Positions 1 to 52,203 of a DNA stretch of 64,000 nucleotides are shown piece after piece. Numbering within the stretch: position 1 is the stretch's first letter; every line of letters begins with the position of its first letter. The notes beneath the pieces are model-generated. The model saw only the letters and a program-made list of their open reading frames with translations. It was not told where the DNA came from and did no database searches. The DNA comes from Verrucomicrobiia bacterium (lineage in GTDB: Bacteria; Patescibacteriota; Saccharimonadia; Saccharimonadales; JAGQNK01): assembly GCA_035489575.1 (NCBI GenBank), contig DATHJY010000013.1, positions 155,346-219,345 on the forward strand, in the 5' to 3' direction. Position numbers and translations under genes: made by a program.

Positions 1-800
1 TGACGTACGTCACGTACGGCTCGGCCCGCCACCAGCCCGTCCACTACAGCTTCTACCAGAACCGCGCCAGCGAGCGTGTGCCCGGCCAGGGACCCAACTG
101 CATGTTCTTGCAGTTCCCGACCGCGCATCTGGAGGCAGTGGACGGCCCCAACCACACCCACGACTTCATGCGCGACGTCACGGCCGGGCTGCCCGACCTG
201 GTGTACGTCCCCCGCATGCGCGGAGCAACCCTGGGCGGCCTCGCCACCCGGTCAGCCCTCGGCGCGCCCGTGGTCGTGGAGCATGGTGACTACCACCTCA
301 TCCTGTGCAGCTCGCCCAGCCGCATCCTGGAAGCCCTGGATCAGGTGCCCCCCAGCCGTCGGCCGGCGCATACCGCGCAGCTCGAGGCCCTGGCCGCCTG
401 GTACGGGGAGTGGTACCCGGATCACTCGTTCGTGCTGGCCTGCTTCAACGGCAGCGCCAACCCGCGGCACCCGATCGCCGTCAGGTACGTCCCCAACAAC
501 GACGACGTGGTGTTCGCCCCCGGACTGGACGGCCACACTGGCAACGTGCCGATCATCGGCCAGCCCATCGTGCGTGACTTCTACGTCGCGTTCGCGGTCC
601 AGGGCCAGCAGCTGCCGATCAGCTTCCGCTACCAGCACGGCGGCTTCATCATCCAGCCCGACTGGGCCCCGCTGCCGAACCTGGGAGTCGCCGGCTTCCA
701 CGACAACCGCTTCGACGCCCCCAACGGCGACTACACCGTCGCGGTCGACAGCCTCCGGCAGGGCGCTTCCGGCCACGAGCTGGTGGACGTCCTGATCTGA
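1..800 (+). CDS. hypothetical protein, 5' end outside window (high-GC island I1)
   Basis: Frame 3 is open from nt 3 to TGA at 798-800 (the ORF track starts it at GTG 78). Codon usage is GC3-rich, unlike the adjacent genes. No motif recognised. Confidence 0.6.
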   Translation, partial: TYVTYGSARHQPVHYSFYQNRASERVPGQGPNCMFLQFPTAHLEAVDGPNHTHDFMRDVTAGLPDLVYVPRMRGATLGGLATRSALGAPVVVEHGDYHLILCSSPSRILEALDQVPPSRRPAHTAQLEALAAWYGEWYPDHSFVLACFNGSANPRHPIAVRYVPNNDDVVFAPGLDGHTGNVPIIGQPIVRDFYVAFAVQGQQLPISFRYQHGGFIIQPDWAPLPNLGVAGFHDNRFDAPNGDYTVAVDSLRQGASGHELVDVLI

Positions 801-850
801 CGCAACTTCGATAGGTGATCGAGTAGAACCGATCAAACAACACAAAAAGC

Positions 851-901
851 CCTAGGGTGATGACCTGTTCTTTCGCATTTATGCGAAGTCATCACTCTAG
901 G
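851..901 (+). other. long imperfect RNA hairpin 3' of island I1
   Basis: 851-864 pairs with 888-901 (14 bp, including a G856.U896 wobble valid only on the + strand). An inner hairpin pairs 872-877 with 882-887, with a 7-nt bulge at 865-871. No U-run follows on the + strand. Confidence 0.45.
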
Positions 902-953
902 CACTACCATGTCTTAATCTCCAAGATGTATAAAGTGGTTTATACTCTTATAT

Positions 954-1220
954 ATGGCAAAAAAGACTTATAACGAAGACGACCTGAAGCGCATAGCCGA
1001 GCTCATCACAGAAGACATTGGAATGCGAATCGACGCCCTGGAAGAAAATATGGGTGCCATAGTCGAAAGGAAAGTCCGTCCGGTTGTACAAGAAGAGCTT
1101 GTCGAGGCAAGGGAGGACATCAAACTCATTAAAGCTGCGGTCACTGATACCAGTAATGACCTTCATAAACTTGAAAGACGAGTGGCTCGCCTAGAGGCCA
1201 CACGGGGGATTCCTGGGTGA
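954..1220 (+). CDS. small coiled-coil hypothetical protein
   Basis: 88-aa ORF with a charged heptad-like sequence. Its stop overlaps the xth start by 4 nt (translational coupling). Confidence 0.55.
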   Translation: MAKKTYNEDDLKRIAELITEDIGMRIDALEENMGAIVERKVRPVVQEELVEAREDIKLIKAAVTDTSNDLHKLERRVARLEATRGIPG

Positions 1221-2020
1221 AAATCTACAGCTGGAATGTCAATGGAATCCGCGCCGTGGTCAACAAAGGTGCTTTTCAAGAGTTTATAAAAACGCACCAG
1301 CCAGACATCTTGTGCCTGCAAGAAACCAAGGCCATGCAAGGGCAGGCCGTTATAGAACTACCTGATTATGAGGAGTACTGGCACTCAGCCGAAAAGAAGG
1401 GGTACAGTGGCACCGCCATCTTTACCAAGCACCAGCCCATAGCTGTCATCAACAGTTTGCCAGAAGATATCCAGAAAAAATACGGTCTGGTGGCCGACAA
1501 ATATGGCAACCCCAATAGCGAGGGCAGGGTCATCGCTGCCGAGTTTGAAGATTTTTATATTGTTACCGTCTACACCCCCAATGCCAAGGACGACCTCAGC
1601 CGCGTACCACTGCGCCACAAACAGTGGGATCCAGCTTTCCTGGCCTACTGCCAACAGCTAGAAAAGAAAAAGCCCGTCATCTTTTGCGGCGATCTCAATG
1701 TCGCTCATACACCCGACGACCTAGCCCGCCCCAAACCAAATGAGGGCAAGAAAGGCTTTACCACCGAAGAGCGCGAAGGCTTCCAAAAGTTCATAGACCA
1801 CGGCTTTGTAGACACCTTCCGTATGTTTACCGAAGGCAACGGACACTACAGCTGGTGGTCCCACTGGGGCAATGCCCGCGCCAATAATGTTGGCTGGCGG
1901 ATTGACTATTTCCTGGTGTCAGAGGGCTTGAAGAAAAAGATCAAAAAGGCCCAAATCCATGCCGACGTCATGGGGTCCGACCACTGTCCCATCAGCATAA
2001 CCCTGCAAACATCAGCCTAG
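1217..2020 (+). CDS. xth: exodeoxyribonuclease III (AP endonuclease, ExoIII/APE1 family)
   Basis: N-terminus MKIYSWNVNGIRA, LCLQETK, C-terminus GSDHCP, and typical length (267 aa). Confidence 0.9.
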   Translation: MKIYSWNVNGIRAVVNKGAFQEFIKTHQPDILCLQETKAMQGQAVIELPDYEEYWHSAEKKGYSGTAIFTKHQPIAVINSLPEDIQKKYGLVADKYGNPNSEGRVIAAEFEDFYIVTVYTPNAKDDLSRVPLRHKQWDPAFLAYCQQLEKKKPVIFCGDLNVAHTPDDLARPKPNEGKKGFTTEEREGFQKFIDHGFVDTFRMFTEGNGHYSWWSHWGNARANNVGWRIDYFLVSEGLKKKIKKAQIHADVMGSDHCPISITLQTSA

Positions 2021-2032
2021 GATAGGACAGCA

Positions 2033-2431
2033 ATGGCCAAAACACGTACCATCAGACAAAGCGACACCAGCTTTGAAGAGATAAGTCAGCTGATCTGGAA
2101 ACATCTGGAAGAGCGGGATTGGCTCGGCAATTCGCCCCGAGGCTATGCAACATCTATTGCTATCGAGGCTGGTGAACTGCTCGAGCACTATCAGTGGTCC
2201 GAGAAAGCAGTGGGCGACAAGCAAGCCCTAGCTGATGAACTAGCCGATATACTTATCTACTGCTTCCAGTATGCCCAACGAACTGACATTGATATGACCC
2301 AAGCTATCAAACAAAAACTGAAGAAGGCTGCCCAGAAGTATCCAGCCGAAAATTTTAAGAATAGATCCAAAGCAGACAGACACCAAAACTGGCAAGAAGC
2401 ACTCAGGGCTTATCGCACCGAAAAAACATGA
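2033..2431 (+). CDS. MazG-like nucleotide pyrophosphohydrolase
   Basis: EAGELLEHYQW ... ELADILIYCFQ helix pair typical of the MazG/NTP-PPase fold; 132 aa. Confidence 0.75.
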   Translation: MAKTRTIRQSDTSFEEISQLIWKHLEERDWLGNSPRGYATSIAIEAGELLEHYQWSEKAVGDKQALADELADILIYCFQYAQRTDIDMTQAIKQKLKKAAQKYPAENFKNRSKADRHQNWQEALRAYRTEKT

Positions 2432-2916
2432 AAGAACTAACTCTTGTGTTCCTCATCCGTGACCACCAGGTACTGCTGGCCATGAAAAAACGTGGCTTTG
2501 GTGCCGGCAGATGGAACGGAGCAGGAGGCAAGCTCGAGCCAAACGAGAGCACCACAGAGGCTTTGGTCCGCGAATGCCAGGAAGAAATAGGTGTCACCCC
2601 CACTAGCTACGAAAAAGTAGCAGACCTCACCTTTGACGCCTATATGAACGACCAACGTACTGATCTACATGTCCATGCCTTTCTGTGCCATGAGTGGACT
2701 GGCCAGCCAACCGAGTCCGAAGAAATGCGTCCTCAGTGGTTCAAAACAACCGACATACCTTATGGCGACATGTGGCAAGACGACAAACACTGGCTGCCAC
2801 AAGTTCTGAACGGCAAGAAAGTAGTCGGTACGTTTGCATTTGATAAACAAGATGTCATGCTCAGCCATAAAGTGCAGGAGGTAACAGATTTTGGATCATC
2901 CAACATTTTGGCATAG
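2428..2916 (+). CDS. NUDIX hydrolase (MutT-like)
   Basis: Nudix box GGKLEPNESTTEALVRECQEEIGV. The start overlaps the previous stop by 4 nt. Confidence 0.85.
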   Translation: MKELTLVFLIRDHQVLLAMKKRGFGAGRWNGAGGKLEPNESTTEALVRECQEEIGVTPTSYEKVADLTFDAYMNDQRTDLHVHAFLCHEWTGQPTESEEMRPQWFKTTDIPYGDMWQDDKHWLPQVLNGKKVVGTFAFDKQDVMLSHKVQEVTDFGSSNILA

Positions 2917-6929: not shown

Positions 6930-7265
6930 CTCCTGAAGTTCCACTGAATAAACCCAGAAACTCTTATTTAAACAGTGCATTCCCCACATACAAGCCAGTA
7001 CGCGGTTGGCCAAACATTACTAGCCAGTAGCTCCCAACTGTCTGGGTCCTGCGGGATTTATTATTGACTTAAAAGATTGCAGGGCCGCAAACAGGTCCTC
7101 GGACCGCAGGCGGCTGGGAGCTACTGGCTAATCAGTTTTGGCCAAAGCGTACGTGACTTCCATGTGGGGAATGCCGCCACGAAACGTGGATGGCTTACCC
7201 CACCTCCGACCAGATCAGGCTTTCCAGAAACTGATTGGGTGGCTGGTCAAGGCTACCGTAATGGT

Positions 7266-8257
7266 TCAATACCTTCGCACCACCAGTCCGAGCGGCGAAG
7301 CCGCGAGCTGGTGGAAAGAAGGGATAATGAACCATATGCCATACACCACTAATCCCAAACTCCCCCGCCTGCGTATGCAGGCTGTGCTCATGGTTCGCCG
7401 TGGCCACAGTGTGCGAGCGGTAGCTCGCCACTTTGGGTACAGCCACAGCACCGTGTCCCGCTGGGTGGCTCGTGCTCCGTTCGATGGACGAGAAACCATC
7501 CCCACACTCCGCAGCAAACCCAAGTCCCATCCCCGGGCTTTGGCCCCAGGGCTTGTGTCAGCCATTGTGGAGGAACGCTTGCGCACCAAGCGCTGCGCCG
7601 AGGTGATCCAGGCGAGCCTTGCCCGCCGTGGCATCACCGTCTCGTTGAGCAGCGTGAAACGCACGCTCAAGCGACACGAACTGGTGCCGTCCCGCAAATG
7701 GAAACGGTATCGCCCACCAGTGGCTCGGCCTCCGGCCGAGACCCCTGGTGCCCTCGTGCAGACAGATACCATTCACTTCCTGGATTGGCAGACCAAGGAG
7801 ATGTTCTACCTCTACACGGTGATTGATCTGCACAGCCGCATGGCACATGCGGCTGTGCACGACCACATCTCACAACACTGGAGCTACCAAACAATCCTGG
7901 AGGCCCAGGCCCTGTTCGGCTTTGCCTTCCAGACGGTCCAGGCAGACAACGGACCAGAGTTTGCCACTTGGCTCAAAGACATGTTGAAGAGCAAAGACAT
8001 ACAACTTCGCCACAGCCGAGTCCGCCAGTCCAATGACAATGCCCACATTGAACGCTTCAACCGGACCATTCAGCAGGAACTGCTGGGCACCAGGCCGCTC
8101 CGCGGCCAGGTGACTAAGACCAGGCTAGACGCCTGGCTCCACTACTACAACCACGACCGGCTACACCTTGGTATTGGACTTAAGACACCAAAAGAACAAC
8201 AAGAACTGGCTGCAAGACAACCGGCCTAACGGCCGGTTAGTGGTGCGAAGGTATTGA
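7266..8257 (+). mobile_element. IS481-family-like insertion sequence (boundaries tentative)
   Basis: 18-bp perfect terminal inverted repeat tcaataccttcgcaccac (7266-7283 with 8240-8257) brackets a DDE transposase. A second, outer imperfect IR pair lies at 7091-7114 and 8270-8293. No clear target-site duplication. Confidence 0.65.
7327..8229 (+). CDS. DDE transposase/integrase-core protein (IS481-like)
   Basis: N-terminal HTH (RAVARHFGYSHSTVSRW) and rve-type core (DNGPEF ... NDNAHIERFNRTIQQE). ATG 7327 is preferred to the track start at 7138. Confidence 0.85.
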   Translation: MNHMPYTTNPKLPRLRMQAVLMVRRGHSVRAVARHFGYSHSTVSRWVARAPFDGRETIPTLRSKPKSHPRALAPGLVSAIVEERLRTKRCAEVIQASLARRGITVSLSSVKRTLKRHELVPSRKWKRYRPPVARPPAETPGALVQTDTIHFLDWQTKEMFYLYTVIDLHSRMAHAAVHDHISQHWSYQTILEAQALFGFAFQTVQADNGPEFATWLKDMLKSKDIQLRHSRVRQSNDNAHIERFNRTIQQELLGTRPLRGQVTKTRLDAWLHYYNHDRLHLGIGLKTPKEQQELAARQPA

Positions 8258-12849: not shown

Positions 12850-14094
12850 TCAGCGGGCGTAGGGCTTGCAGACCCGGTGCCTGGTCTCTTGGAAGATCAT
12901 GCGGTAGGTCCTCTTCCGGGGTGGGCCGCCAGGACGCGAACACGACAGCAGCTCCACAGCCGCACGGGTCTGCTTGACCTGCTCACGCCGCTTCTCCTCG
13001 TCACGCTGGGCGCGAGTCTGGCGACGATCCCGCCGGCCTTCGACGATCCGCTCGTACACCTTGCCGAACACGGGAATGCCGCTGACAGCGCCCGCGAACA
13101 GAGCCAGTCCGGCAATGATGCCCAGAAGGACCAGCGGCACCAGGTGCAACAGCAGGCTCACGCCCAAGCATTCCCACCAGCTCCAGCCGAGCCAGTGCAC
13201 AACTCGCTCGTTCTCGGTCACGTGCCAGCTGCTGATCCCCAAGATGATCAGGGCAACCGCCAGCGGCGACAGGGGGTTCAGGGGCAACCGCCAGGCGGGC
13301 AAGCGACGACCCTCTCTGTCGAACCACCAGATGGAGTTGTCGGCCTGCTCGCTGACGTGCCGGATCCGATAGCGCAAGGGGTGGGCAAAGCTCTTGTACT
13401 GCAGGTCGCGCAAGCCCAGCGCAAGCCCGAAAACGACCTGGAGGGTCCGCAACAGGTAGGCCCATGGAAAGTACAGCGGGGCGTAGAGGCCCAGCAGGAT
13501 CATGCGGGCACGGCCCTTGCACTGATCGAACGCCGCGTCGTCCACGAACTTGCCGGTGTAGTCCCGGAACCACTGGGGCAACGGCTTGGCGAACATCTCC
13601 TCCGGCACCACCATGGTGATCTCGTCGAAGACCTCGTACAACAGACAGGCCTCTCGGTTGCCACGGTCATGCCGTCGCACTCGTCGAAGCTCGCCGTCGT
13701 AGTTGTCGAACACGACTCCCGGGCGGAAGACATCACCAAGGCGCCAGCTGCCGTGACCTTCATCATTCCAGATCACAGTGGCACTGATGGCGTTGTTGCC
13801 CGGCCGCGAGCAGGACACATACTGCTGGCCTTCGCTGAACGGCACGATGTACTGCTTGGTCACGCTGGAGTAGAGACGCCTCTCCTCGCCATCTCTCTGG
13901 GTGACCGAGTATGGCCGCACCATGATGAGGACGAAGGGGTTGACGATCTCGTGGTGATCCACCAGATCCTGCAGCTCGGAGGTCGGAGCACACCACGTCA
14001 CTTTGACGTTGGCTTCACTCGTCCCATCCTCGTGTATCACCGCACTGAGCTGCAACGGCTCTTGCCGCTCGGTGGGAGTAACGGTGTCAGTCAC
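12850..14094 (-). CDS. hypothetical membrane protein (high-GC island I2)
   Basis: 414-aa ORF with a GTG start preceded by GGAGG at a 7-nt spacing. Soluble N-terminal half, several TM segments, basic C-terminal tail. GC3-rich; the + strand 474-aa ORF is a shadow ORF. Confidence 0.7.
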   Translation of the reverse strand: MTDTVTPTERQEPLQLSAVIHEDGTSEANVKVTWCAPTSELQDLVDHHEIVNPFVLIMVRPYSVTQRDGEERRLYSSVTKQYIVPFSEGQQYVSCSRPGNNAISATVIWNDEGHGSWRLGDVFRPGVVFDNYDGELRRVRRHDRGNREACLLYEVFDEITMVVPEEMFAKPLPQWFRDYTGKFVDDAAFDQCKGRARMILLGLYAPLYFPWAYLLRTLQVVFGLALGLRDLQYKSFAHPLRYRIRHVSEQADNSIWWFDREGRRLPAWRLPLNPLSPLAVALIILGISSWHVTENERVVHWLGWSWWECLGVSLLLHLVPLVLLGIIAGLALFAGAVSGIPVFGKVYERIVEGRRDRRQTRAQRDEEKRREQVKQTRAAVELLSCSRPGGPPRKRTYRMIFQETRHRVCKPYAR

Positions 14095-17826: not shown

Positions 17827-18000
17827 TTAGCGCTCGGCAGAGTGACCGGGCACGATCAGGCCGAGGATCAGGAACACTGCGCCAACGATGATGGGGATAG
17901 CGACGACGGGAACATCGACGGAGTCAGTGTTGCCATCAGCAACGAGCTTGAGGGCCGTGAGGCAAGCCACGAAGGCAATGAAGTAGAGCAGAACTTTCAT
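17827..18000 (-). CDS. 57-aa hydrophobic peptide, 2 TM (high-GC island I3)
   Basis: MKVLLYFIAFVACLTALKLV...PVVAIPIIVGAVFLILGLIV; GC3-rich. It has its own promoter and a ~170-nt leader. Confidence 0.55.
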   Translation of the reverse strand: MKVLLYFIAFVACLTALKLVADGNTDSVDVPVVAIPIIVGAVFLILGLIVPGHSAER

Positions 18001-24381: not shown

Positions 24382-24603
24382 GTGTCCTTTCAAGATCACT
24401 CCGTCCTAGTCCCTCACCTCCCTCTCAAGAAGAGAGAGATCCCCAGCGAGCCCGAAGACTGCGACGAGATCGCACGAATCGCCCAAGCCTTCTGGGAAGG
24501 AACTCTCGAGTGCCTTCCGAAGGGCTACACACCCAGCGAGTGGAGATCTGCAGTAACCCGCAAGCCTAACTGCTCCGCGATGATGCTGATCTACAACACC
24601 TGA
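24382..24603 (+). CDS. small hypothetical protein (island I4, moderately GC-rich)
   Basis: GTG 24382 is preceded by GGAGG (24372-24376) at 5-nt spacing and is in frame with track ORF 24328-24603. Confidence 0.5.
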   Translation: MSFQDHSVLVPHLPLKKREIPSEPEDCDEIARIAQAFWEGTLECLPKGYTPSEWRSAVTRKPNCSAMMLIYNT

Positions 24604-24951: not shown

Positions 24952-25125
24952 ATGTTCAAGTTGTTCCTGTTCCTGGTTGTCATCGTCGTCACCGTCGTCA
25001 CCGTCTACGTGATGGCCAGCCTCCTGGCTGCGGTCGTCGCCGGGTTCATCCTGGTCGTCGGCACGCTGGCCTACCTGATCATCGGTGGCAAGCGCCTCGT
25101 CGAGAGCCAGACCCCGGCCAGCTAA
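24952..25125 (+). CDS. 57-aa hydrophobic peptide, 2 TM (high-GC island I5); not in ORF track (<60 aa)
   Basis: ATG 24952 is preceded by GAGGAGGGGA. Sequence: MFKLFLFLVVIVVTVVTVYVMASLLAAVVAGFILVVGTLAYLIIGGKRLVESQTPAS. The overlapping 155-aa Arg-rich track ORF is a frame artefact. Confidence 0.6.
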   Translation: MFKLFLFLVVIVVTVVTVYVMASLLAAVVAGFILVVGTLAYLIIGGKRLVESQTPAS

Positions 25126-25371: not shown

Positions 25372-25863
25372 GTGGAACTATTACTCAATGCCTCCATCGC
25401 CGAGGACTCCATCCAGGACGCCGTCCCCACCATCGACAACATCGTCAGTGGTGGCCTGACCAACGGCAGCGACAAGCTGTACATCGTTGCCGGCTTCCGC
25501 AACCCGGACGGTACGGGTGGCATCCTGACCACCTTCGCCTACGGCGACAGAAGGGGATGGAAGTACCCCATCGACGACATCGCCCTCGGCAAGTTCGACA
25601 TCTCCGCAGCCACCGGCTTGCCCTCGCGCCTGGTACAGACCCAGGAACCCGAGCGTCTTCGTGACGGCGACGTCAAGTACGGCGGCAGCTGGGTCCTGGG
25701 ATCCATCGTGGTCGCCGCCTCCGGGTTTCCGTCCTACTGGGACGAGCAGATCTGTGCCATCATCTGCCACATCATGAGGGGCCGGGTGCACGTGCTGCGC
25801 GAGCGCCTAGAGAAGGCAGCAGGCGAGGACGTCTACCTCGTGCGCTCCCGGCTGGCGGCCTAG
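25372..25863 (+). CDS. hypothetical protein, possibly GlcG/DUF336-like (high-GC island I6)
   Basis: GTG start with AAGGAG 4 nt upstream; 163 aa. YGGSWVLGSIVVAASGFPSYWDEQICAI weakly resembles DUF336 blocks. Confidence 0.6.
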   Translation: MELLLNASIAEDSIQDAVPTIDNIVSGGLTNGSDKLYIVAGFRNPDGTGGILTTFAYGDRRGWKYPIDDIALGKFDISAATGLPSRLVQTQEPERLRDGDVKYGGSWVLGSIVVAASGFPSYWDEQICAIICHIMRGRVHVLRERLEKAAGEDVYLVRSRLAA

Positions 25864-26061: not shown

Positions 26062-26547
26062 GTGCAAGAAGCCAAGTGGGCTGCCATCGGAGCTGTCTGG
26101 GCCGCGATCGTCCTGATCGTGTCAATCGGCGGCGGCGGCGGCGGAGTGCTGATCGTCGGCATTTGTGTGCCGCTCATCATCTTCGGCATCGTCCGTCTTG
26201 TCAATCGGTTCCGCAACAAGCCCGCCGAGAAGAAGACACTGACACCGGATGACAGGCGACGCCACGTCCGCAAGGAAGACCAAGCCACAGTGGACGCCCT
26301 GATCGACGCCGTCCAGGAACGGATCGACGACTACACCACCTCGACAGTGCCCGACTGGGAGACCTCCTACTCGCTGGTCGACAACGCCAGCAAGCAAGTG
26401 CCGAGGGCAATCGTCGAGAACGTCAGGGTCCACTTCGAGGACAACGGCTGGGAGACCGGTATCAAAGACGACGAACTCGTCGTACGCGACCCAAAGAACG
26501 CGCCCAAGCCAGCCACCCCGCCGACTGCGCCGTCCACCACCAGCTAG
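26062..26547 (+). CDS. hypothetical membrane protein (high-GC island I7)
   Basis: GTG start with AAAGGAGA upstream. Two N-terminal TM segments around a GGGGGG tract, then a cytoplasmic domain and a Pro-rich C-terminus. Confidence 0.65.
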   Translation: MQEAKWAAIGAVWAAIVLIVSIGGGGGGVLIVGICVPLIIFGIVRLVNRFRNKPAEKKTLTPDDRRRHVRKEDQATVDALIDAVQERIDDYTTSTVPDWETSYSLVDNASKQVPRAIVENVRVHFEDNGWETGIKDDELVVRDPKNAPKPATPPTAPSTTS

Positions 26548-28778: not shown

Positions 28779-29411
28779 GTGTCCACGACAACCACCATAC
28801 ACACACCGTGTACGGTCAACATGCGCGTCTTCGACCTCAGCGCCGACGACGCACCCGGCCATGTCGTCTTCGGCCGACTGGCCTTCCAGATCGACCAGCT
28901 CTCCCCGACTTCGGTCGTGGCACTGCAGCAGGTGCTCAACGGTCACCGCGGGCAGCTCACCAAGGCATGCCTGGCAGACATCGTCATCTGGGCTACCGAT
29001 CACGCCACCAAGCAAGAGGGCCGACTCCGTCTGCTGCTCAGCAGCCAAGCCGATCGAGAAGGTCGCCGGATTGGGATTGGCCTGGTCAATCCGACCCTTC
29101 CCACCGTCTGCACGGTTGCCGTCAGCGTGTTCAACGACGACGGAGCCATCAAGTCCTTCGAGTTGCCAGATGTGCCCACCGACACGGTCCGCTACATCCA
29201 GCGGGGGATGAGCCACTTCAGTGGCGTACTCACCAACCCCTGTGGCGATCTGATGCATGCCTGGGCCGTCATGTGCTGTCCTCATGTCGTACCAACGCTC
29301 CTGACCGAGCTGCGGGGCTACCACAACATCGGCTTCAAGATCGACGCCGTTCGGATGGAGCACACCACGGTGTTCGTGGCCGAACCACCTAGCGAGGACA
29401 TCATGCCATAA
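28779..29411 (+). CDS. hypothetical soluble protein (high-GC island I8)
   Basis: GTG start with AAGGGA upstream; 210 aa; GC3-rich. The antisense 279-aa ORF is a shadow ORF. Confidence 0.65.
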   Translation: MSTTTTIHTPCTVNMRVFDLSADDAPGHVVFGRLAFQIDQLSPTSVVALQQVLNGHRGQLTKACLADIVIWATDHATKQEGRLRLLLSSQADREGRRIGIGLVNPTLPTVCTVAVSVFNDDGAIKSFELPDVPTDTVRYIQRGMSHFSGVLTNPCGDLMHAWAVMCCPHVVPTLLTELRGYHNIGFKIDAVRMEHTTVFVAEPPSEDIMP

Positions 29412-35015: not shown

Positions 35016-35345
35016 ATGACACTTCCTCTCGCATCCGAGCGCCTGCGCGACGAATCCGCCGCCAAGTGGCGATGGGCCTTCCTACAGTTCATCCTGCTCC
35101 TGGGCGCCCTCGCCGCCGCAGTCTGGGTGAGTCTGGACGTTACCGTCTGGATCCCCAAGGGAACCGAGCCCGATCCCGGCTTCGTTGATACGTTCGCGAT
35201 CTGCGGCTGGGTCGTCGTGGCATTCATGTTGCTCCGTTCGATCCCGGCAACCATCATGGAAGCCAAGCTCCTCTACCAGCGAGCCAAGCTGGCCATCGTC
35301 AGCGAACATGCCGTTCGCAGCGGGCCAACCACCACACCACGCTAA
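35016..35345 (+). CDS. 109-aa membrane protein, 2 TM (high-GC island I9)
   Basis: ATG preceded by GAGGT at 5-nt spacing. Contains WAFLQFILLLGALAAAVWV and FAICGWVVVAFMLL. GC3-rich. Confidence 0.65.
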   Translation: MTLPLASERLRDESAAKWRWAFLQFILLLGALAAAVWVSLDVTVWIPKGTEPDPGFVDTFAICGWVVVAFMLLRSIPATIMEAKLLYQRAKLAIVSEHAVRSGPTTTPR

Positions 35346-43231: not shown

Positions 43232-44023
43232 ATGTTGAAGCTCTTCCGCAAGTGGTGGAAGTACCTGACGGCCAAGCTGTCCTCGTCGTTCAGCGAGAAC
43301 GCGGACCCCAAGGTCCAGCTGGAACAGGCTCTCATCGAGGCCCAGGACCAGCAGCGGCGGCTGAAGGAGCAGGCGGCCAACGTCATCGCCCATCAGAAGC
43401 AGACCGAGATGCGGCTCAACCGCACCATGGACGAGCTCGAGAAGGTCAACACCAACGCCGTCCAGGCCGTCAAGATGGCCGATCAGGCTGCCGTGGCGGG
43501 TGACGAGGCCAGGGCGTCGCAGTACACCAACACCGCGCAGACCTTCGCCACCCGGCTGATCCAGCTCGAGAAGGAGGTCGCCGACCTCAAGACCATGCAG
43601 CTGCAGGCGACCGGCGCAGCCGACCAGGCCAAGAAGGCCGTCTCGCAGAACGCCATGGCCCTCCAGCAAAAGCTGGCCGAGCGTCAGAAGCTGCTGTCGC
43701 AGCTGGACCAGGCCAAGATGCAGGAAACCATGAACAAGGCCATGTCGTCGCTGTCCGAGACGGTCGGCCAAGACGTGCCCACGCTCAACGAGGTCCGCGA
43801 CAAGATCGAGGCGCGCTACGCCAAGGCCAAGGGCGCCGCCGAGCTCAACGCCGACTCCGTCGAGGTCCACATGCTCGAGGTCGAGGCCGCGACCATGGAC
43901 GCCGAAGCCACGACCCGTCTGGACGAGATCAAGGCCCAGCTCGGCATCGCGACCGCCCCGGTCACCGACGCCATCCCGGCGATCCCGGCGACCCAGCCGC
44001 AGGAAGCCGAGTCGGGCAACTAG
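43232..44023 (+). CDS. pspA: PspA/IM30-family protein (high-GC island I10)
   Basis: N-terminus MLKLFRKWWKYLTAKLSSSFSENADPKVQLEQALIEAQ with long coiled coils, typical of PspA/IM30. GC3-rich; the antisense 215-aa ORF is a shadow ORF. Confidence 0.85.
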   Translation: MLKLFRKWWKYLTAKLSSSFSENADPKVQLEQALIEAQDQQRRLKEQAANVIAHQKQTEMRLNRTMDELEKVNTNAVQAVKMADQAAVAGDEARASQYTNTAQTFATRLIQLEKEVADLKTMQLQATGAADQAKKAVSQNAMALQQKLAERQKLLSQLDQAKMQETMNKAMSSLSETVGQDVPTLNEVRDKIEARYAKAKGAAELNADSVEVHMLEVEAATMDAEATTRLDEIKAQLGIATAPVTDAIPAIPATQPQEAESGN

Positions 44024-44110: not shown

Positions 44111-44734
44111 TTATGGGGCCATGAGTGGCACAAACAAGAAACCTTCGTAGGTCTCAGTGTGCACCTGACCATGCTCATCTTTTATAACTTGTACCAAGGC
44201 ATGCCCAATCGGCATAACCAACACTCCTGGCGCTGCCAGCTGATCTAATAACTCTTGCGGAACCTCTTGAGCCGCCGCCGATACCAAAATCCGATCGAAC
44301 GGTGCCTCCTCGGGCAGGCCCATCACCCCTGACGCACACTCATGCATGTGCAAATGGGACATGTTGAACTTGGCGACGGCCTTGCGACTCTTGTCTACCA
44401 GTTCGGGGATTCGTTCCACCCCGTGGACTACGCCCTGAGGCCCCACAATATAAGCCAATAACGCCGAGGTCCACCCAGAACCCGAGCCCACATCCAGCAC
44501 CTTATTGCCCGTCTCGGGCCGCAGCAGTTCCAGCATAAAGCCCACAGTGTAGGGCTGCGAGATAGTCTGGTGGTGGCCAATAGGCAGTGCCTGGTCGTAG
44601 TAGGCCTGGGCCTTATGAAAAAGCGGCACAAATTGCCGCCTGTCGATATGGACAAATGCCTCGTAAATACGAGGCGTGTGCGCCACATGATCGTTTCTGA
44701 GCCTTCGTGCGAGTGATCTGTTACTCATATCCAA
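44111..44734 (-). CDS. pcm: protein-L-isoaspartate O-methyltransferase
   Basis: TISQPYTVGFMLELL and SAM motif VLDVGSGSGWTSALLA. Confidence 0.85.
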   Translation of the reverse strand: MDMSNRSLARRLRNDHVAHTPRIYEAFVHIDRRQFVPLFHKAQAYYDQALPIGHHQTISQPYTVGFMLELLRPETGNKVLDVGSGSGWTSALLAYIVGPQGVVHGVERIPELVDKSRKAVAKFNMSHLHMHECASGVMGLPEEAPFDRILVSAAAQEVPQELLDQLAAPGVLVMPIGHALVQVIKDEHGQVHTETYEGFLFVPLMAP

Positions 44735-44759
44735 AAAATATCATAAACCCCGCTTAAAA

Positions 44760-45500
44760 ACAGCCAAAAACCTCTCACAACATGAGAGACCCCGAGCGGG
44801 TCTCTCATCGCGCGGGGAAAATGTGCTCCATTTTCTCCGGCTGCTCTTCCTGAAAACGGATAAGTACTTTTGGGAGTAAATCCCAAAAGTACTTGCTTTA
44901 TCAATGGGTTTGCACAAGAGGAAAGCCCGAGAACTTGTTCCTCGGCGCGCTAGGAGGGGAAATCATCTCCTCCTAAAATTAACTAAAAAGAGCCCGCAGA
45001 GGGTGAGACATGCCTGTGGCATGTTGCAAGGGAACCTTCCGATGGCAACTTGTTGCCAATCGCGAAGTTCCGGGGTCGCGCTAGCGCGACTGGGCACCTG
45101 GCCGTAACTAAAAACGGGCCTCCGAGAGGGGGTGGGCACCACTCGAAGACCCGATTTTAGGGAACAACCGAAGTTGCTCCCAACCACCCTTCAACCCACC
45201 CCAGCGAAGCGTCGATGTCCAAAACTCCATAAAGACTCGCGCCGGCCTCGAAAGGCCATACTTGCATACTCACTTTGAAACGGGGACCCTTAGATTCTCG
45301 AAAGATCCTAAGGGGCTAGTTAAAGGGGTTAGTTTGTTTTAGAACGCCGCCCGCCGGCAAGCCAGTAAGCAACGCCAAGAATAAGTGGAGGGTAACAACT
45401 CATAATCAGCACGTTCTAAAACAATCTAACAAAACATTCTGTGTAAACACAGAACTGTTAGAATAGGGGGTATAAGGTGCGTAATTTACCATTACAGTAA
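44760..45500 (+). ncRNA. large structured non-coding region (candidate ncRNA of unknown class)
   Basis: About 750 nt with no credible ORF, densely packed with perfect local hairpins (for example gtacttttggga/tcccaaaagtac at 44874-44902 and gtcgcgc/gcgcgac at 45085-45100). It contains module P at 45011-45084. Strand is inferred from a G.U pair in hairpin 44825-44849. Confidence 0.3.
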
Positions 45501-45533
45501 TTACAAATTGTCATTTTACCAAAAATATTATAT

Positions 45534-46406
45534 TTGTCAACACCTTTTATGAAAAAAGTCAACATGGTTACGCTTGAGGAATCCGCACTTCCGGACAGGA
45601 TTACCTCTGTTATACCACCACCAAAACAGCTCTATATACAGGGACCTCTAAAAAGTTTTTTGCAGGCCCCTTGTATTGCTATTGTGGGCAGTCGCCGGGT
45701 CAGTCCCTACGGTCGGGCGGTCACCCTTAGATTGGCCCAGGAACTGGCCGAACGGGGCATTGTTATTGTCAGTGGGCTGGCCATTGGCGTTGATAGCCTG
45801 GCCCACCAGGCAGCCCTGGATGCCGGGGGACGGACTATTGCCATTTTGCCGACGGCCCTCAGTAGCATCTATCCACGCAGCCATACCCACCTGGCGCAGA
45901 GCATATTACAGGCAGGCAACGTCCTGGTAAGCGAATATGCCGACGATACCCCGCCCATGAAGCACCAGTTTATTGCTCGCAATCGCCTTATTGCCGGACT
46001 GGCAGATGCCGTCCTGATACCAGAGGCAGCAGAGAAGAGTGGCAGCCTACACACCGCAGCCTTTGCGCTAGAGCAGGGCAAAACCATCCTGGCAGTACCT
46101 GGTAACATCACCAGCGAGTTATCACGGGGCACGAACAACCTGGTCAAAACAGGGGCCATTCCCGTCACGGCTGTGTCAGATATTTTCTATGCGCTTGGCA
46201 TAGAACCCACCCTCAGACAACTCCGCCTCCCCGCGGACGAAACAGAGTCAATTATCTTAGACCTGCTCCAACAAGGCACAACCGATATGACCCAGCTCCA
46301 GATCCAGAGTGGACTAGACCCGGCTCTATTTAATCAAACACTCACGATGCTGGAACTAGCTGGCAAGATCCGTTCCGTGGGCGCTGGTCATTGGGCCACC
46401 ACATAA
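45534..46406 (+). CDS. dprA: DNA-processing protein DprA (Smf)
   Basis: IVGSRRVSPYGR...IVSGLAIGVDSLAHQAAL. Start uncertain (TTG 45534 or ATG 45549). Confidence 0.85.
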   Translation: MSTPFMKKVNMVTLEESALPDRITSVIPPPKQLYIQGPLKSFLQAPCIAIVGSRRVSPYGRAVTLRLAQELAERGIVIVSGLAIGVDSLAHQAALDAGGRTIAILPTALSSIYPRSHTHLAQSILQAGNVLVSEYADDTPPMKHQFIARNRLIAGLADAVLIPEAAEKSGSLHTAAFALEQGKTILAVPGNITSELSRGTNNLVKTGAIPVTAVSDIFYALGIEPTLRQLRLPADETESIILDLLQQGTTDMTQLQIQSGLDPALFNQTLTMLELAGKIRSVGAGHWATT

Positions 46407-46603: not shown

Positions 46604-47062
46604 ATGCCCGTGTCTTCTGCCCCCGTCACCAGCTTTCCCCAAGAGCTCCGCCGGGTCCGACCCATTGTCTGGATCGGGTCCGCGCTCGTCTGCTTCTTCC
46701 TCGGCGTGGGACTCACCCTGTGGGTGACCCATAACGACAGGATCGAGGTCGACAAAATCAGCACCGTGGTCTACAGCCATGGACCGGCCGAACGCGCCAG
46801 TTACATCGCCGAATTCACGGTGACCGACTGCTACCCTGCGGATGCCGATTTCAGCGGACCCACCTGGAGCGCAACCCAGACCGAGTTGTCCAGGAACTAT
46901 CCCTCCGCACGTTTCGACTTCCACGGTGGTGACCCCAAGGGATTCGTCACCGTTAGGCTCGACCTGGACGGCTTCAAGGAAAGTCCGGAGCTTCGATTGG
47001 TCGCCAACGACATCCACCGTGTCTTGCACAGCAAGCACGCCTGCGAGCCCCCGAAGTCCTGA
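46604..47062 (+). CDS. membrane-anchored/secreted hypothetical protein (high-GC island I11a)
   Basis: N-terminal TM segment (IVWIGSALVCFFLGVGLTLWV), then a soluble domain. Start ATG 46604, or TTG 46580 / GTG 46610. Confidence 0.6.
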   Translation: MPVSSAPVTSFPQELRRVRPIVWIGSALVCFFLGVGLTLWVTHNDRIEVDKISTVVYSHGPAERASYIAEFTVTDCYPADADFSGPTWSATQTELSRNYPSARFDFHGGDPKGFVTVRLDLDGFKESPELRLVANDIHRVLHSKHACEPPKS

Positions 47063-47109: not shown

Positions 47110-47193
47110 ATGGGTTACGTCATCGGTGTCATCGTGGTCGCAGCTGCTGCGGCCTTCGGCTGGAACAAGTACAAGCAGAGCCGCTCGGCCTAG
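47110..47193 (+). CDS. 27-aa hydrophobic peptide (island I11b); not in ORF track
   Basis: ATG preceded by AAAGGGGGG. Sequence: MGYVIGVIVVAAAAAFGWNKYKQSRSA. GC3-rich. Confidence 0.45.
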   Translation: MGYVIGVIVVAAAAAFGWNKYKQSRSA

Positions 47194-47260: not shown

Positions 47261-47368
47261 AGGCCGCCCCTTCATACATCATCAAACTTTTACAGGCTCC
47301 TGGCAGTCAGCGACCACACAGACCGCACCCTTGGTGCATTCTTTAATACCTCCTGCCAGTCCTGTACC

Positions 47369-47434
47369 CGCTTCTATGAATGTGCGATACCTTTCGCAAA
47401 ACTCATACTGATGAGTCCAAGAGGACGAAAAGCG
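47369..47434 (+). ncRNA. hammerhead ribozyme, type III (HHR-1)
   Basis: CGCUUC|UAUGA-AUG-UGCGA-UACCUU-UCGCA-AAAC-UCAUA-CUGAUGA-GUCC-AAGA-GGAC-GAAA-AGCG. Stem III is 5 bp (47369-73 with 47430-34), C17 is at 47374, and the G10.1-C11.1 pair is present. Confidence 0.9.
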
Positions 47435-47449
47435 AGTACAATTTGATAT

Positions 47450-49991: not shown

Positions 49992-50020
49992 TTGACTTTT
50001 AGCTAATTTTATACTATAAT
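49992..50020 (+). promoter_or_regulatory. consensus sigma70 promoter TTGACT-17-TATAAT for island I12
   Basis: -35 at 49992-49997 and -10 at 50015-50020. The leader hairpin GAGUG...CACUC follows. Confidence 0.65.
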
Positions 50021-50087: not shown

Positions 50088-50597
50088 ATGCTTTCCAATC
50101 GAACCCTCGGCCTCATGGCCGGCATCATCGTGACGCTCATCGGCATCACGCTCTGGCTCAGCTGGAACTTCGGCTACTGGAGCGACGACGGCCCGCGTGT
50201 CGACCACACCAGCCTGTTCCTGCCCAGCGCAATCTGCGGTACCCTCGGCATCATCGCCGCGGCCATCATCATGATCGCGACCATCTACGGCCCCAAGTCG
50301 GTGTACGGCAATCCCGGATTCGTCAAGCATCTCGCAAACGAGTGCGCTGGCTGGGGAGCTGTTGTCCTGATCCTGCCGTCCTTCATGGGCGCCCTCATGG
50401 CTGGGACCGACATCCCCAACAACGTGTCCAACGGTTCTGTCCCGTTCCACTGGGCCACCTTCGGCAGCTACTCCGGTAGCCTCCTCGCTGGCCTGCTGGT
50501 GACCAACCTGTTGCTGTCCCTGGTGCTGTACTTCTGGGCAGACCGGCCTGGTGACCTGACCATCGACAGCTGGCTGAGCCGAGTCGTCCAAGCCTGA
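50088..50597 (+). CDS. 169-aa 4-TM membrane protein (high-GC island I12)
   Basis: ATG 50088 is preceded by GGGAG, and the GC shift begins ~50060. The antisense 181-aa ORF is a shadow ORF. Confidence 0.7.
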   Translation: MLSNRTLGLMAGIIVTLIGITLWLSWNFGYWSDDGPRVDHTSLFLPSAICGTLGIIAAAIIMIATIYGPKSVYGNPGFVKHLANECAGWGAVVLILPSFMGALMAGTDIPNNVSNGSVPFHWATFGSYSGSLLAGLLVTNLLLSLVLYFWADRPGDLTIDSWLSRVVQA

Positions 50598-50657
50598 GGG
50601 CTGGCCCTAGGACAAGGCAACACGCCGCCGTGCATGATACCTGGAGGGTCCAGGACG

Positions 50658-50713
50658 TGAAGTGGTAGAGGTGATGGATCATCCATCGACAACCCCTCAT
50701 ACCTCCCACTTCA
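50658..50713 (+). repeat. 56-nt perfect direct repeat (copy 1), structured 3'-UTR element
   Basis: Identical to 51422-51477. Outer stem ugaagugg/ccacuuca encloses GAGGUGAUGGAU-C-AUCCAUC-(GACAACC bulge)-CCUC. Confidence 0.85.
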
Positions 50714-50720
50714 CGCCCAC

Positions 50721-50790
50721 ACAGTTTCTATGAATGTGCAGCCAACACTGCAAGAGTCATACTGATGAGTCCAAGAGGACGAAAAGCTGT
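50721..50790 (+). ncRNA. hammerhead ribozyme, type III (HHR-2)
   Basis: ACAGUUUC|UAUGA-AUG-UGCAG-CCAACA-CUGCA-AGAG-UCAUA-CUGAUGA-GUCC-AAGA-GGAC-GAAA-AGCUGU. Stem III is 7 bp including one G.U, C17 is at 50728, and the distal stem I covaries with HHR-1. Confidence 0.9.
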
Positions 50791-50809
50791 AAAACTTCTT
50801 TGACATTAG

Positions 50810-50818
50810 TGCTATAAT
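50810..50818 (+). promoter_or_regulatory. extended -10 promoter TGcTATAAT for island I13
   Basis: TG at 50810-11 and hexamer at 50813-18. The adjacent TTGACA (50800-05) is only 7 nt away, too close to serve as its -35. Confidence 0.5.
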
Positions 50819-50878
50819 ATTTTGCGAGTGATTCGTTTCTGCACTCACAAATAACCCTCGAGGCCTCTTGGAGGAATC

Positions 50879-51373
50879 ATGTTCAGCATGCTGACGTTCC
50901 GTCGCATGACACTCGCCACGCTCGGCTTGGGCGCGCTGCTTTTCCCGATCTGTTGGTTTGCCGCCTACGGAACCCAGGAATTGTCCAGGGCACCTCATGG
51001 TGACCTATTCAGCGCTGGCGTCATATCCGGCATTATCGGTGTGGTGATCGCCTACGTGCTCCTCATGGGCACCATCCATGTCGAAGATGCCGACTTCGGT
51101 GAAAGTCAGTTCCTGGGACACCTGATGGCAGCCTTCGGGATCGTCGCAGCTGTGCTGTTCGTGTTGGGCTGCATAATCGCCGGCTTCGTCTCCAGCTCCC
51201 CCGAAGGTGGTCCCATCGACACGGGCGTGTTCGGCACCATCGTCATCAGCCTACTCGCCAGCTACCTCACCACCTTTTTCGTCCTGGTGGGTGCGTTCGG
51301 CGACGAGACGTGGATCGGTGGCAAGAAGACTGACAACAACCTCTTCCGGGACGGTGTTATCAGCGGGCCCTAA
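50879..51373 (+). CDS. 164-aa 4-TM membrane protein (high-GC island I13)
   Basis: ATG preceded by GGAGG at 5-nt spacing. GC3-rich (63% GC in the first 60 nt by hand count). Confidence 0.7.
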   Translation: MFSMLTFRRMTLATLGLGALLFPICWFAAYGTQELSRAPHGDLFSAGVISGIIGVVIAYVLLMGTIHVEDADFGESQFLGHLMAAFGIVAAVLFVLGCIIAGFVSSSPEGGPIDTGVFGTIVISLLASYLTTFFVLVGAFGDETWIGGKKTDNNLFRDGVISGP

Positions 51374-51421
51374 GGCACACACTGGCCAACAGAGAGTTAC
51401 AAATCCTGGAGTACCAGGTCA

Positions 51422-51477
51422 TGAAGTGGTAGAGGTGATGGATCATCCATCGACAACCCCTCATACCTCCCACTTCA
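51422..51477 (+). repeat. 56-nt perfect direct repeat (copy 2)
   Basis: Identical to 50658-50713. Confidence 0.85.
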
Positions 51478-51483
51478 TGTCAC

Positions 51484-51533
51484 AGCTTCTACAAATGCGA
51501 TTTGTACTGATGAGTCCAAAAGGACGAAAAGCT
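51484..51533 (+). ncRNA. hammerhead ribozyme, type III (HHR-3)
   Basis: ACAGCUUC|UACAAAU-GCG-AUUUGUA-CUGAUGA-GUCC-AAAA-GGAC-GAAA-AGCU. Stem III is 5 bp and C17 is at 51489. Confidence 0.9.
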
Positions 51534-51564
51534 ATAGCCACAGAGGCAACAGAGAAGGAAATAG

Positions 51565-51593
51565 TTGACAAATACTGTTTTTATTATTAAAAT
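51565..51593 (+). promoter_or_regulatory. sigma70 promoter TTGACA-17-TAAAAT upstream of island I14
   Basis: -35 at 51565-70 and -10 at 51588-93, followed by a ~225-nt leader. Confidence 0.55.
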
Positions 51594-51820
51594 AACATAG
51601 TTTTACATGGGTTTTCACCCCTAAAACGTATTATTGACAAGCAGGCAGACAGAGCGGAGTATTGTGGGCTTTTTGTAAGCAAAGAGCACAGAATATTCTG
51701 CTCCTGTCACCACAAGAACAGACACATCCGTGGCTTTAGCCGTGGGGACTCGCAAAAGCAGGTCAAACTGCGCGAGTTAGAAGGAAATCTCAGTCCAGCC
51801 AACCGAAAGGCTTCGGCACC

Positions 51821-52081
51821 ATGAGCATCACCACCCTCGCCAGCATCCCCGCCACCTACAACACCCCCACGTACTACGCCCCCGCCTACCAGCCGCGGGT
51901 CGACCTCGTGTCGATCAGCCTCACCCTGGTGTTCGAGCGGCAGAGCGTGATCCGCCTGGGCTACGCCTGGATCGATGGCTACTTCGTCGCCATCGACCTC
52001 CTGGTCGTCACCCAGTACGCCGTGGTCATCGAGAAGACCGCCCTCCTCGTCGACGGCGACATCGTCGTCTTCATCGGCTAG
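51821..52081 (+). CDS. 86-aa hypothetical protein (high-GC island I14)
   Basis: ATG start, GC3-rich, beta-rich hydrophobic sequence. Weak Shine-Dalgarno site. Confidence 0.5.
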   Translation: MSITTLASIPATYNTPTYYAPAYQPRVDLVSISLTLVFERQSVIRLGYAWIDGYFVAIDLLVVTQYAVVIEKTALLVDGDIVVFIG

Positions 52082-52097
52082 TCGACTTCGTCGGCTC

Positions 52098-52203
52098 GGT
52101 ATGACGAGTAGGTGGGTGCGGATGTGTACAGCAAAAGGATGTGGCCTATGGCTGCAACTCTCCTTTTTCTGTTCCCCTCTGTTCACCCGCCTGCTGTCAT
52201 ACC
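52098..52203 (+). other. long-range 20-bp stem closing the 3' UTR of island I14
   Basis: 52098-52118 pairs with 52184-52203 (one bulged G and two U.G wobbles, which would be A.C mismatches on the other strand). Confidence 0.5.

Follow-up and report, generated by a model that had tools for sequence, protein, structure and literature searches.

Horizontally acquired genes are recognised by an atypical G+C content at third codon positions (GC3), as laid down in the amelioration framework of Lawrence and Ochman. The phage moron (Juhala/Hendrix), for its part, consists of a promoter, one open reading frame (ORF), and a terminator located between conserved genes, and has a deviant base composition. 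Horizontal gene transfer (HGT) into Patescibacteria has also been described, with islands and single transferred genes accounting for up to 13% of the genome length; the donors lay mostly within Patescibacteria, and one event originated from Actinomycetota (PMC12455944). The present analysis deals with a DNA stretch of 64,000 nucleotides (nt), hereafter the window (contig DATHJY010000013.1 of assembly GCA_035489575.1, positions 155,346 to 219,345, forward strand), of which the first 52 kb contain 15 ORFs with strongly G/C-biased third codon positions. These ORFs are referred to as islets and are numbered as in Table 1, i0 being a further islet located just upstream of the window. On homology and phylogeny, the islet encoding PspA (43232-44023) is shown to be a xenologue issued from Acidimicrobiia, and the donor-like G/C-ending codon usage of the islets is shown to be actively preserved in the recipient, rather than merely young. 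Several islets are followed by hammerhead ribozymes. While HGT into Patescibacteria is known, no report linking hammerheads with Patescibacteria was found in the literature searched.

The islets share several features with known HGT islets: an atypical composition bounded near the gene ends, a patchy distribution of accessory genes, nearest homologues in another phylum (in the case of PspA), and a similar extent, with 13.7% of the first 52 kb, compared to up to 13% of the genome in the published case (PMC12455944). They differ from them in being single ORFs, dispersed over about nine housekeeping spacers, without integrase, tRNA target, or flanking repeat, and in showing no amelioration, despite predating a split with a synonymous divergence (dS) of about 0.8. 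Like phage morons, they combine a promoter-like site of their own, one short ORF, a GC-rich 3' flank, and a deviant composition, and each unit lies between genes that are adjacent in relatives. Nevertheless, the backbone is that of a cellular chromosome (topA, der, pth, gltX, umuDC) instead of a prophage, i0 alone matches the PHROG database, and hammerheads replace or supplement the terminators. Integron cassettes come to mind at 50088-52081, where short, often orphan ORFs of foreign composition are arranged in series, each followed by a structured repeat. The islets are, however, dispersed among housekeeping genes and have their own promoters, and neither an integrase among the annotated genes nor an attC-type or other shared junction repeat, besides the hammerhead module, was found.

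The overall GC content of the window is 53%. GC3 ranges from about 0.71 to 0.99 (mean 0.84) in the 15 ORFs, versus 0.568 ± 0.072 (maximum 0.69) in the backbone, a set of 41 genes picked by family matches or conservation in relatives (Mann-Whitney p = 6.7e-9; z = 2.0-5.8). The codon bias claimed in an earlier, sequence-only reading of the window is, thus, borne out, and the islets deviate in composition from the resident genome; two of them, at 17827-18000(-) and 24382-24603, are marginal (z = 2.0-2.3). As islet GC1 (~0.60) and GC2 (~0.44) hardly differ from those of the backbone, the signal is essentially synonymous. When PspA is left aside, the synonymous codon usage of the islets correlates with that of Acidimicrobiales genes at r = 0.96, versus r = 0.66 with the backbone, with codon fractions of, for example, 0.92 for TTC, 0.91 for ATC, and 0.92 for AAG; C-ending codons for Phe, Tyr, Asn, and Ile reach 0.89-0.95. 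The preference for C versus G at four-fold sites is 0.64-0.66 in all three sets, and does not allow separating donor from recipient. Long antisense ORFs lie over every islet, as had been noticed previously (e.g., 12733-14157(+) over 12850-14094(-)), and gene callers at times took the wrong strand (e.g., L169 15718-16236, in a sister genome presented below). The products had been described as mostly short transmembrane (TM) or hydrophobic proteins, in agreement with the TM-like segments present in 10 of the 16 islet products. Finally, about 14 separate islands had been counted. The 15 ORFs correspond, instead, to about nine insertion loci, and the ORFs starting at 50088, 50879, and 51821 constitute one tandem paralogue family.

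The islet boundaries can be followed through the mean GC content, which rises from 0.36 at positions -90 to -61 (the promoter zone) to 0.45 at -60 to -31 and 0.56 at -30 to -1, amounts to 0.55-0.65 within the ORFs, and is 0.63 and 0.60 in the first 60 nt past the stop codon; the matching flank positions of backbone genes show 0.43-0.47. The GC-rich segment reaches a little beyond the ORF, by about 30 nt on the 5' side and about 60 nt on the 3' side. The composition switch is, therefore, sharp, as proposed in the sequence-only reading, but not exact to the codon, and AT-rich DNA is limited to the promoter zone, instead of being typical of the flanks in general. The hand counts given there of 63% GC inside the ORF starting at 50879 and 40% at the topA start were reproduced, whereas the 60 nt before 50879 contain 46.7%, not 33%. 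Promoter-like sites are in excess in the region (16, versus 6.3 ± 2.3 expected); they precede PspA, i11 (46604), and i15 (51821), and the TTGACT-17-TATAAT site announced at 49992-50020 is present.

The PspA product, rightly recognised at the outset as a PspA/IM30 homologue, matches Pfam family PF04012 over its full length (residues 4-236), with 109.7 bits for a gathering cut-off of 33.9. Its best named homologues, besides itself, belong to Acidimicrobiales (70-81% identity). Compared with genes from Acidimicrobiales metagenome-assembled genomes (MAGs), identity is 81-84% for the protein and 83% for the DNA (83% for L007; labels such as L007, L089, L096, and L098 designate the genome or metagenome stretches compared with the window). 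The best 80 PspA loci among the GTDB species genomes all come from Acidimicrobiia or Actinomycetota, with a GC content of 68-74%. The donor contexts are chromosomal and conserved, for example MurJ-PspA-proB-obg-L27-L21, and no homologue of the other islets was found within 10 kb on either side of PspA in 80 Acidimicrobiia genomes. At the DNA level, homology to L007 sets in about 30 nt upstream of the ATG and tapers off close to the stop codon. Compared with the PspA/IM30/Vipp1 membrane-stress proteins, the window gene is typical in its full-length family match and its identity to Acidimicrobiales PspA. It differs in being solitary, between pth and a PCMT methyltransferase gene and without pspBC or other partners, and in its raised ratio of nonsynonymous to synonymous differences (pN/pS), 0.53 versus 0.23-0.42 among donor genes. 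The adjoining PCMT (isoaspartyl methyltransferase) gene, at 44111-44734 (-), is missing from 80 relatives of the recipient but has an ordinary GC3 of 0.62; it is, therefore, a second insertion in the PspA spacer, with a different history.

PspA does not occur in the pth-dprA spacer of the 80 syntenic relatives. It is present in a sister genome obtained from a different sample (run SRR33471251; L169, L170, and L172), and window and sister PspA group exclusively with each other in 97 of 100 bootstraps with all sites and in 99 of 100 with third positions. The proportion of synonymous differences (pS) between them is 0.22, while either gene differs from L007 by 0.30-0.41. L128, a closer relative outside the sister pair (Der 85%), lacks the gene. 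PspA was, thus, gained once, after the divergence of L128 and before the split between window and sister. A separate acquisition by the two sisters was considered (the sister protein is 92% identical to the actinobacterial P0013), and is ruled out by the synonymous-site and bootstrap results. Nesting in a foreign donor clade, found for PspA, is suggested for i0 by its Mycobacterium phage homologues, and was not observed for the seven islets searched.

The comparison with the sister also provides a way of dating the islets. Backbone proteins are 85-97% identical and backbone DNA about 86% identical between the two genomes, with a dS of 0.6-1.35 (about 0.8) and a dN/dS of 0.02-0.09, versus 0.2-0.56 for the shared alignable islets. 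Third positions were compared at codons for which the amino acid is conserved between window and sister. Differences between G and C, counted per G/C site, are equal in islets (30/488 = 0.061) and backbone (66/1294 = 0.051), which makes the shared islets as old as the window-sister split. Differences between G/C and A/T (S<->W) behave otherwise: in backbone genes, they reach 0.24-0.30, mostly about 0.28, versus 0.05 in PspA, 0.14 in i6, 0.17 in i8, and 0.20 in i9, where about 0.26 is expected from backbone rates. Synonymous changes from G/C to A/T are, thus, suppressed 2- to 5-fold in the shared islets. GC3 is the same, or almost the same, in window and sister (0.95/0.95 for PspA, 0.86/0.85 for i6, 0.78/0.77 for i8), whereas a simple amelioration estimate from backbone rates would bring that of PspA down to about 0.8. 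GC3 was held while amino-acid change was accelerated. The maintenance of foreign codon usage that had been suggested is, therefore, supported, since the islets predate the sister split and yet have lost very few G/C third positions. Selection on synonymous sites is the favoured force. Other candidates are biased conversion and a recurrent replacement by donor DNA, the latter being disfavoured because of the exclusive PspA clade and its low pS. By keeping a donor-like GC3 while about 50% of the backbone synonymous positions changed, the islets contradict the usual amelioration expectation. They constitute a clean natural case on the forces holding synonymous composition, with G<->C changes as an internal clock.

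Homologues of the other islets are rare. The islet i0 is a 326-amino acid (aa) lipoprotein-like ORF (L168 2772-3752; GC3 0.90). It matches phrog_31970 (E = 6e-35) and proteins of the Mycobacterium phages Myrna, Phabba, and ScoobyDoobyDoo (about 33% identity), which is suggestive of an actinophage link; the other nine of the ten islets searched in PHROG gave no match. Pfam and NCBIfam contain no family for any islet but PspA, the small ORFs included. For i1, PHROG, plasmid, and viral-contig searches were equally negative, as were plasmid (tblastn) and viral-contig searches for i2 and the tblastn search of plasmids for i8. The small ORFs likewise had no plasmid or viral-contig match. No close viral relatives of i0, i1, or i2 appeared in the viral-contig scans. 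Seven islets were searched with HMMER in 1.84 billion representatives, yielding 0-2 distant relatives each for i7, i8, i9, i11, i13, and i14; some of these matches share contigs, which indicates that they come from further relatives of the recipient lineage. The seventh, i6, belongs to a family of roughly 200 representatives, with weak homologues on Rhodococcus, Burkholderia, and Vibrio plasmids; a word-indexed search retrieved just i6 itself and its sister counterpart. It has no Pfam or PDB sequence match, but its AF2 model (pLDDT 93) is matched in Foldseek by 9jth, 2a2l, 4nkp, and 6bws (TM-scores of 0.53-0.63, E = 1e-4 to 2e-3), and a DUF336/GlcG/EfgA-like fold is confidently predicted from this structural similarity.

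A metagenome scan with TopA yielded 80 loci at 45-70% identity, some of them on contigs of 651-715 kb, and the gene order HK-RR-rluA-der-pth-dprA-topA-sigma-...-murG-ftsW recurs across these 80 relatives. The recipient is probably a small-genome, epibiotic soil bacterium of the Candidate Phyla Radiation (CPR), Saccharibacteria-like, with a GC content of about 53%. A monoderm, small-genome type of this kind would fit the sortase, the VirD4-like coupling protein, and the reduced dcw cluster, as well as the relatives on contigs of about 0.7 Mb, one of which comes from a 0.1-µm groundwater fraction. The source MAG is labelled 'Verrucomicrobiae bacterium' at NCBI (HTE58397-HTE58448), and mis-binning or mislabelling is likely, given the CPR-type gene content and synteny.

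Synteny with the relatives was compared in the surroundings of topA (35-57 kb), where none of the 80 loci with the common backbone order encodes an islet homologue; the content varies even between the sisters. The pth-dprA, dprA-topA, and topA-sigma spacers measure 2.4, 1.3, and 2.6 kb in the window, versus 100-500 bp in many relatives. Other relatives (L108, L096, L111/L113, and L100) carry different, non-homologous ORFs of raised GC3 in the same spacers, and the slots are, therefore, recurrent gene-gain sites in the clade. Ten high-GC3 ORFs of relatives were searched, and matched no Pfam or NCBIfam family. The islets are, thus, shown to be accessory: distant relatives are devoid of them, and from one sister to the other their content is hypervariable or has been exchanged. 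Identity with the counterpart in the sister is 89% for i6, 81% for PspA, 68% for i8, 64% for i9, 40% for i13, and 33% for i11. The i7 slot of the sister contains an unrelated 173-aa ORF (GC3 0.93) plus a 138-aa ORF, and its i14 slot an unrelated 164-aa ORF with GC1/2/3 of 0.70/0.55/0.86. Within the window, i13 and i14 are paralogous (27% identity, E = 2e-8), and i15, which begins with a stretch homologous to the C-terminal TM region of i14 (repeat D1), is probably a truncated third paralogue. Owing to this relatedness and to the repetition of a 64-nt element followed by a hammerhead, the topA-sigma block is considered a tandemly expanded family, and not three imports.

The hammerhead core pattern CTGATGAG-stem-CGAAA occurs four times in the window, versus 0.02 expected, in agreement with the four hammerhead-coupled islets initially proposed, and a type III hammerhead fold, with a GUC or UUC cleavage triplet, is obtained for all four copies. 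In an alignment of eight copies (the four of the window, plus L089, L098, L142, and L169), 96% of the cells are paired and 13 of the 16 pairs show changes on both sides; no shuffle out of 500 reaches the covariation score, and slid controls do not come close. Three helices with an open stem III are, thus, backed by covariation. A covariance model detected two further copies, at L168 3936-3995 (between i0 and i1) and at L169 13189-13259 (the sister equivalent of 47367-47437). In total, the custom model gives ten matches above 54 bits in the recipient lineage; Acidimicrobiales DNA (1.29 Mb) contains none. With Rfam model RF00008, the best copy (51482-51535) scores 42.3 bits (E = 1e-6), below the gathering threshold of 48.5, and the other window copies score 20.8 and 24.5 bits or are unreported. 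The copies resemble the type III hammerheads of bacterial and phage intergenic regions (RF00008) in their CUGAUGA...GAAA core, three helices, and open stem III, in their UUC, GUC, and CUC triplets, and in compensatory changes in all three stems. They differ in this sub-threshold score, in their density, with five copies over about 68 kb, all of them following an accessory ORF, and in the 64-nt element preceding two of them.

The hammerheads lie on the same strand as the islet, 105-185 nt after its stop codon (five copies; 105-175 nt for the four of the window), and four of the five precede the next co-directional gene (i14, i15, i1, and topA). Small ORFs beside hammerheads in the relatives L142 and L098 have no raised GC3. 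The ribozymes, therefore, go with variable-spacer ORFs, and not with GC3 as such. The two copies of the 64-nt element (50650-50713 and 51414-51477) are 97% identical to each other and 95% identical to the sister, while the adjoining ORFs are far more diverged. The element contains Shine-Dalgarno (SD)-like (GAGGTGAT) and anti-SD-like (ATACCTCC) motifs, and a related motif, ACCTCC, is located upstream of the hammerhead at 47367. Judging from this arrangement, the hammerheads would process the transcript and uncouple the islet mRNA from its neighbour; their consistent position after accessory ORFs suggests that ribozymes insulate new genes from essential neighbours.

Taken together, it is considered somewhat better than an even bet that the islets were imported as single genes, in the manner of morons, from an actinobacterial pool, some of them being then duplicated locally. 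This high-GC pool would comprise Acidimicrobiia and their phages or mobile elements, and the route may be guessed as uptake by natural competence, illegitimate recombination, and trimming by deletion. The three ORFs i13, i14, and i15 would result from local multiplication by tandem duplication. As with a phage moron, transcription of each islet would start at a sigma70-like promoter of its own, and the hammerhead cut would probably separate the islet mRNA from the next cistron, such as topA. HGT is proven for PspA, supported for i0, and plausible for the remaining islets, the foreign origin of the orphans being proposed on codon usage and turnover. The claim of an acquisition from a high-GC actinobacterial donor, thus, holds for PspA and is favoured by the phage homologues of i0, but finds no donor homologue among the other 12 or so ORFs. 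The claim of a precise placement into resident expression cassettes was overstated: the flanks are GC-rich, no attC-like or shared junction repeat exists, and part of the pattern stems from tandem duplication.

Several observations weigh against such an import. No homologue from a high-GC organism was found for about 12 islets (seven of them searched in the 1.84 billion representatives), and the i6 family, of moderate-GC composition, extends across Rhodococcus, Burkholderia, and Vibrio. Islet values of GC1 (0.55-0.65), GARP (0.21-0.34), and FYMINK (0.17-0.26) are recipient-like, those of Acidimicrobiales genes being 0.715, 0.37, and 0.14, respectively; i1 excepted, the islets show no donor signature in amino-acid composition or in GC1 and GC2. 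Neither an integrase, nor a target-site duplication, nor a shared junction repeat marks them, and simple recent HGT does not explain a GC3 of 0.95 kept over a backbone dS of about 0.8. In addition, hammerhead cleavage and promoter activity are predictions, and the taxonomy and lifestyle of the recipient are plausible assignments. Alternatively, most islets might be native, lineage-specific, fast-evolving genes of the envelope or host interface, PspA and perhaps i0 and i1 being the true imports. GC3 would then be lifted and held by a gene-specific force, either GC-biased gene conversion at recombination hot spots or a selective advantage of G/C-ending codons in mRNA stability or translation. 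The backbone-like GC1, GC2, and amino-acid composition, the failure to find donor homologues for the islets searched, the raised dN/dS expected of interface proteins, and the local duplication of i13, i14, and i15 all agree with this explanation, the suppressed S->W synonymous change reveals a force acting in situ, and the C-ending codons resemble a signature of translational optimality. It is, nevertheless, regarded as unlikely, although it is the most serious competitor. The sisters, with 86% identical DNA, hold unrelated ORFs in the same slot, both of high GC3 and one of them (0.70/0.55/0.86) fully actinobacterial in composition. Codon selection does not predict the GC-rich DNA beyond the ORFs, biased gene conversion would run past the gene ends, and PspA, certainly imported, has the same composition. 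A GC3 of 0.93-0.99 also exceeds the values that translational selection normally yields.

Repeated intragenic homologous overwriting with DNA of an actinobacterial host, an allelic replacement at the ORF level, would keep GC3 high without codon selection. In its favour, the sister PspA DNA is closer to L007 (87.8%) than to the window PspA (86.3%), window-sister identity ranges from 0.74 to 0.97 along the gene, G<->C changes dominate the divergence, as they do between donor genes, and dprA adjoins. This mechanism is, nevertheless, judged improbable, as it conflicts with the well-supported exclusive clade and its low pS, with flanks conserved at the backbone level, and with the fact that no donor template is known for the orphan islets. 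Similarly doubtful is a standing system, in which ORFs of the actinobacterial host or its phages would occupy fixed slots, insulated by the 64-nt element and hammerhead, and held at host-like codons; the reason might be that the genes or RNAs function in, or are exchanged with, a high-GC host, or it might be RNA stability around the ribozymes. An assembly or binning chimera, with actinobacterial reads mixed into a lower-GC contig, could be suspected from the mosaic composition itself and from the implausible NCBI name of the MAG, but is hardly credible. A comparison of the junctions excluded it: contigs of ENA ERZ27268085, JGI 3300020034, and Logan SRR7026570 (collections that may go back to one set of reads) match the window at 100% identity over the junctions of i1, i9, PspA, and i11-i15, and in the sister, which stems from another sample, the slots and junctions are the same and the flanks have diverged at the backbone level. 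Islets and backbone have, moreover, evolved jointly.

If the recipient is an epibiotic CPR bacterium, PspA and the actinophage-related islet point to partners among Acidimicrobiia or other Actinomycetota. Such a pointer is valuable, as the hosts of these uncultured soil lineages are almost never known. Should the standing system be real, the codon usage of an epibiont's accessory genes could even reveal its host.

Table 1. Islets, candidate ribozymes, and associated elements in the window, by position.
Feature	Position	Strand	Details
Islet i1, 3' part of a 281-aa soluble orphan ORF	1..800	+	GC 0.69, GC3 0.92; full length at L168 4096-4941
Type III hammerhead, 105 nt past the i2 stop codon	12688..12745	-	Custom model 61.9 bits; predicted cleavage after C at 12738 (minus strand)
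Islet i2, 414-aa orphan with C-terminal TM segments	12850..14094	-	GC3 0.82
Islet i3, 57-aa two-TM ORF	17827..18000	-	GC3 0.72, marginal
Islet i4, 73-aa ORF	24382..24603	+	GC3 0.70, marginal
Islet i5, 57-aa TM peptide	24952..25125	+	GC3 0.93; 33-nt upstream promoter/leader motif recurs before i7 (repeat D14)
Islet i6, 163-aa protein, predicted DUF336/GlcG/EfgA-like fold	25372..25863	+	GC3 0.86
Islet i7, 161-aa orphan with N-terminal anchor	26062..26547	+	GC3 0.81
Islet i8, 210-aa orphan after umuDC	28779..29411	+	GC3 0.78
Islet i9, 109-aa two-TM orphan	35016..35345	+	GC3 0.76
PspA/IM30 xenologue (Acidimicrobiia, on homology)	43232..44023	+	GC3 0.95; promoter-like site 43144-43172
Islet i11, 152-aa single-TM orphan	46604..47062	+	GC3 0.79
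Islet i12, 27-aa TM peptide	47110..47193	+	GC3 0.82
Type III hammerhead between i12 and topA	47367..47437	+	Predicted cleavage after 47374; sister copy L169 13189-13259
TTGACT-17-TATAAT promoter-like site before i13	49992..50020	+	Promoter search
Islet i13, 169-aa four-TM protein, i14 paralogue	50088..50597	+	GC3 0.85
64-nt structured element directly 5' of hammerhead	50650..50713	+	97% identical to 51414-51477, 95% to sister
Type III hammerhead between i13 and i14	50721..50791	+	Predicted cleavage after 50728; compensatory stem I changes in sister copy
Islet i14, 164-aa four-TM paralogue of i13	50879..51373	+	GC3 0.77
64-nt element, second copy	51414..51477	+	Repeat search
Type III hammerhead after i14	51482..51536	+	RF00008 42.3 bits, E = 1e-6; custom model 72.6 bits; predicted cleavage after 51489
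Islet i15, 86-aa ORF	51821..52081	+	GC3 0.99; promoter-like site 51565-51593

Other parts of the window deserve mention. The only recognisable mobility gene encodes an IS481-family transposase (7138-8229; NF033577, E = 2e-54), and adjoins no islet. Beside i2 and i3, the region 14479-21937 contains the gene for a 1021-aa VirD4/TraD-like coupling protein and, after it, large orphan ORFs (701 and 429 aa); it might constitute a module for type IV secretion or conjugation. A block of the opposite compositional type is found at 29500-34700, with a GC content of 0.44-0.47 and a GC3 of 0.38-0.47. It comprises genes for a HAD hydrolase, an MshD-like GNAT, a VanX-like dipeptidase, tRNA-Ser, a VanH-like 2-hydroxyacid dehydrogenase, an RHH/ParE toxin-antitoxin pair, and tRNA-Glu, and contains an 83-nt direct repeat (32833-32915 and 33934-34016). 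After i8, the sister has a radical-SAM gene in place of this block, which is possibly a second, low-GC acquisition.

Before dprA, a noncoding stretch (45397-45596) is 96-99% identical to the sister, above the conservation of the coding backbone. It sits in an ORF-free spacer of about 800 nt (44735-45548), in which a long hairpin is found at 45323-45431. The stretch has no match in Rfam, and could correspond to an RNA or regulatory element not yet described. Within the response-regulator gene 37516-38772, the segment 38001-38400 corresponds to a low-complexity linker with a GC content of 0.65 and a GC skew of -0.41, which is rich in indels between the sisters. Finally, in the relative L128, identity to the window proteins is 81-91% for Der, sigma, and the response regulator, versus only 62% for TopA (topA 10001-12262), and topA may have been replaced in one of the two lineages.

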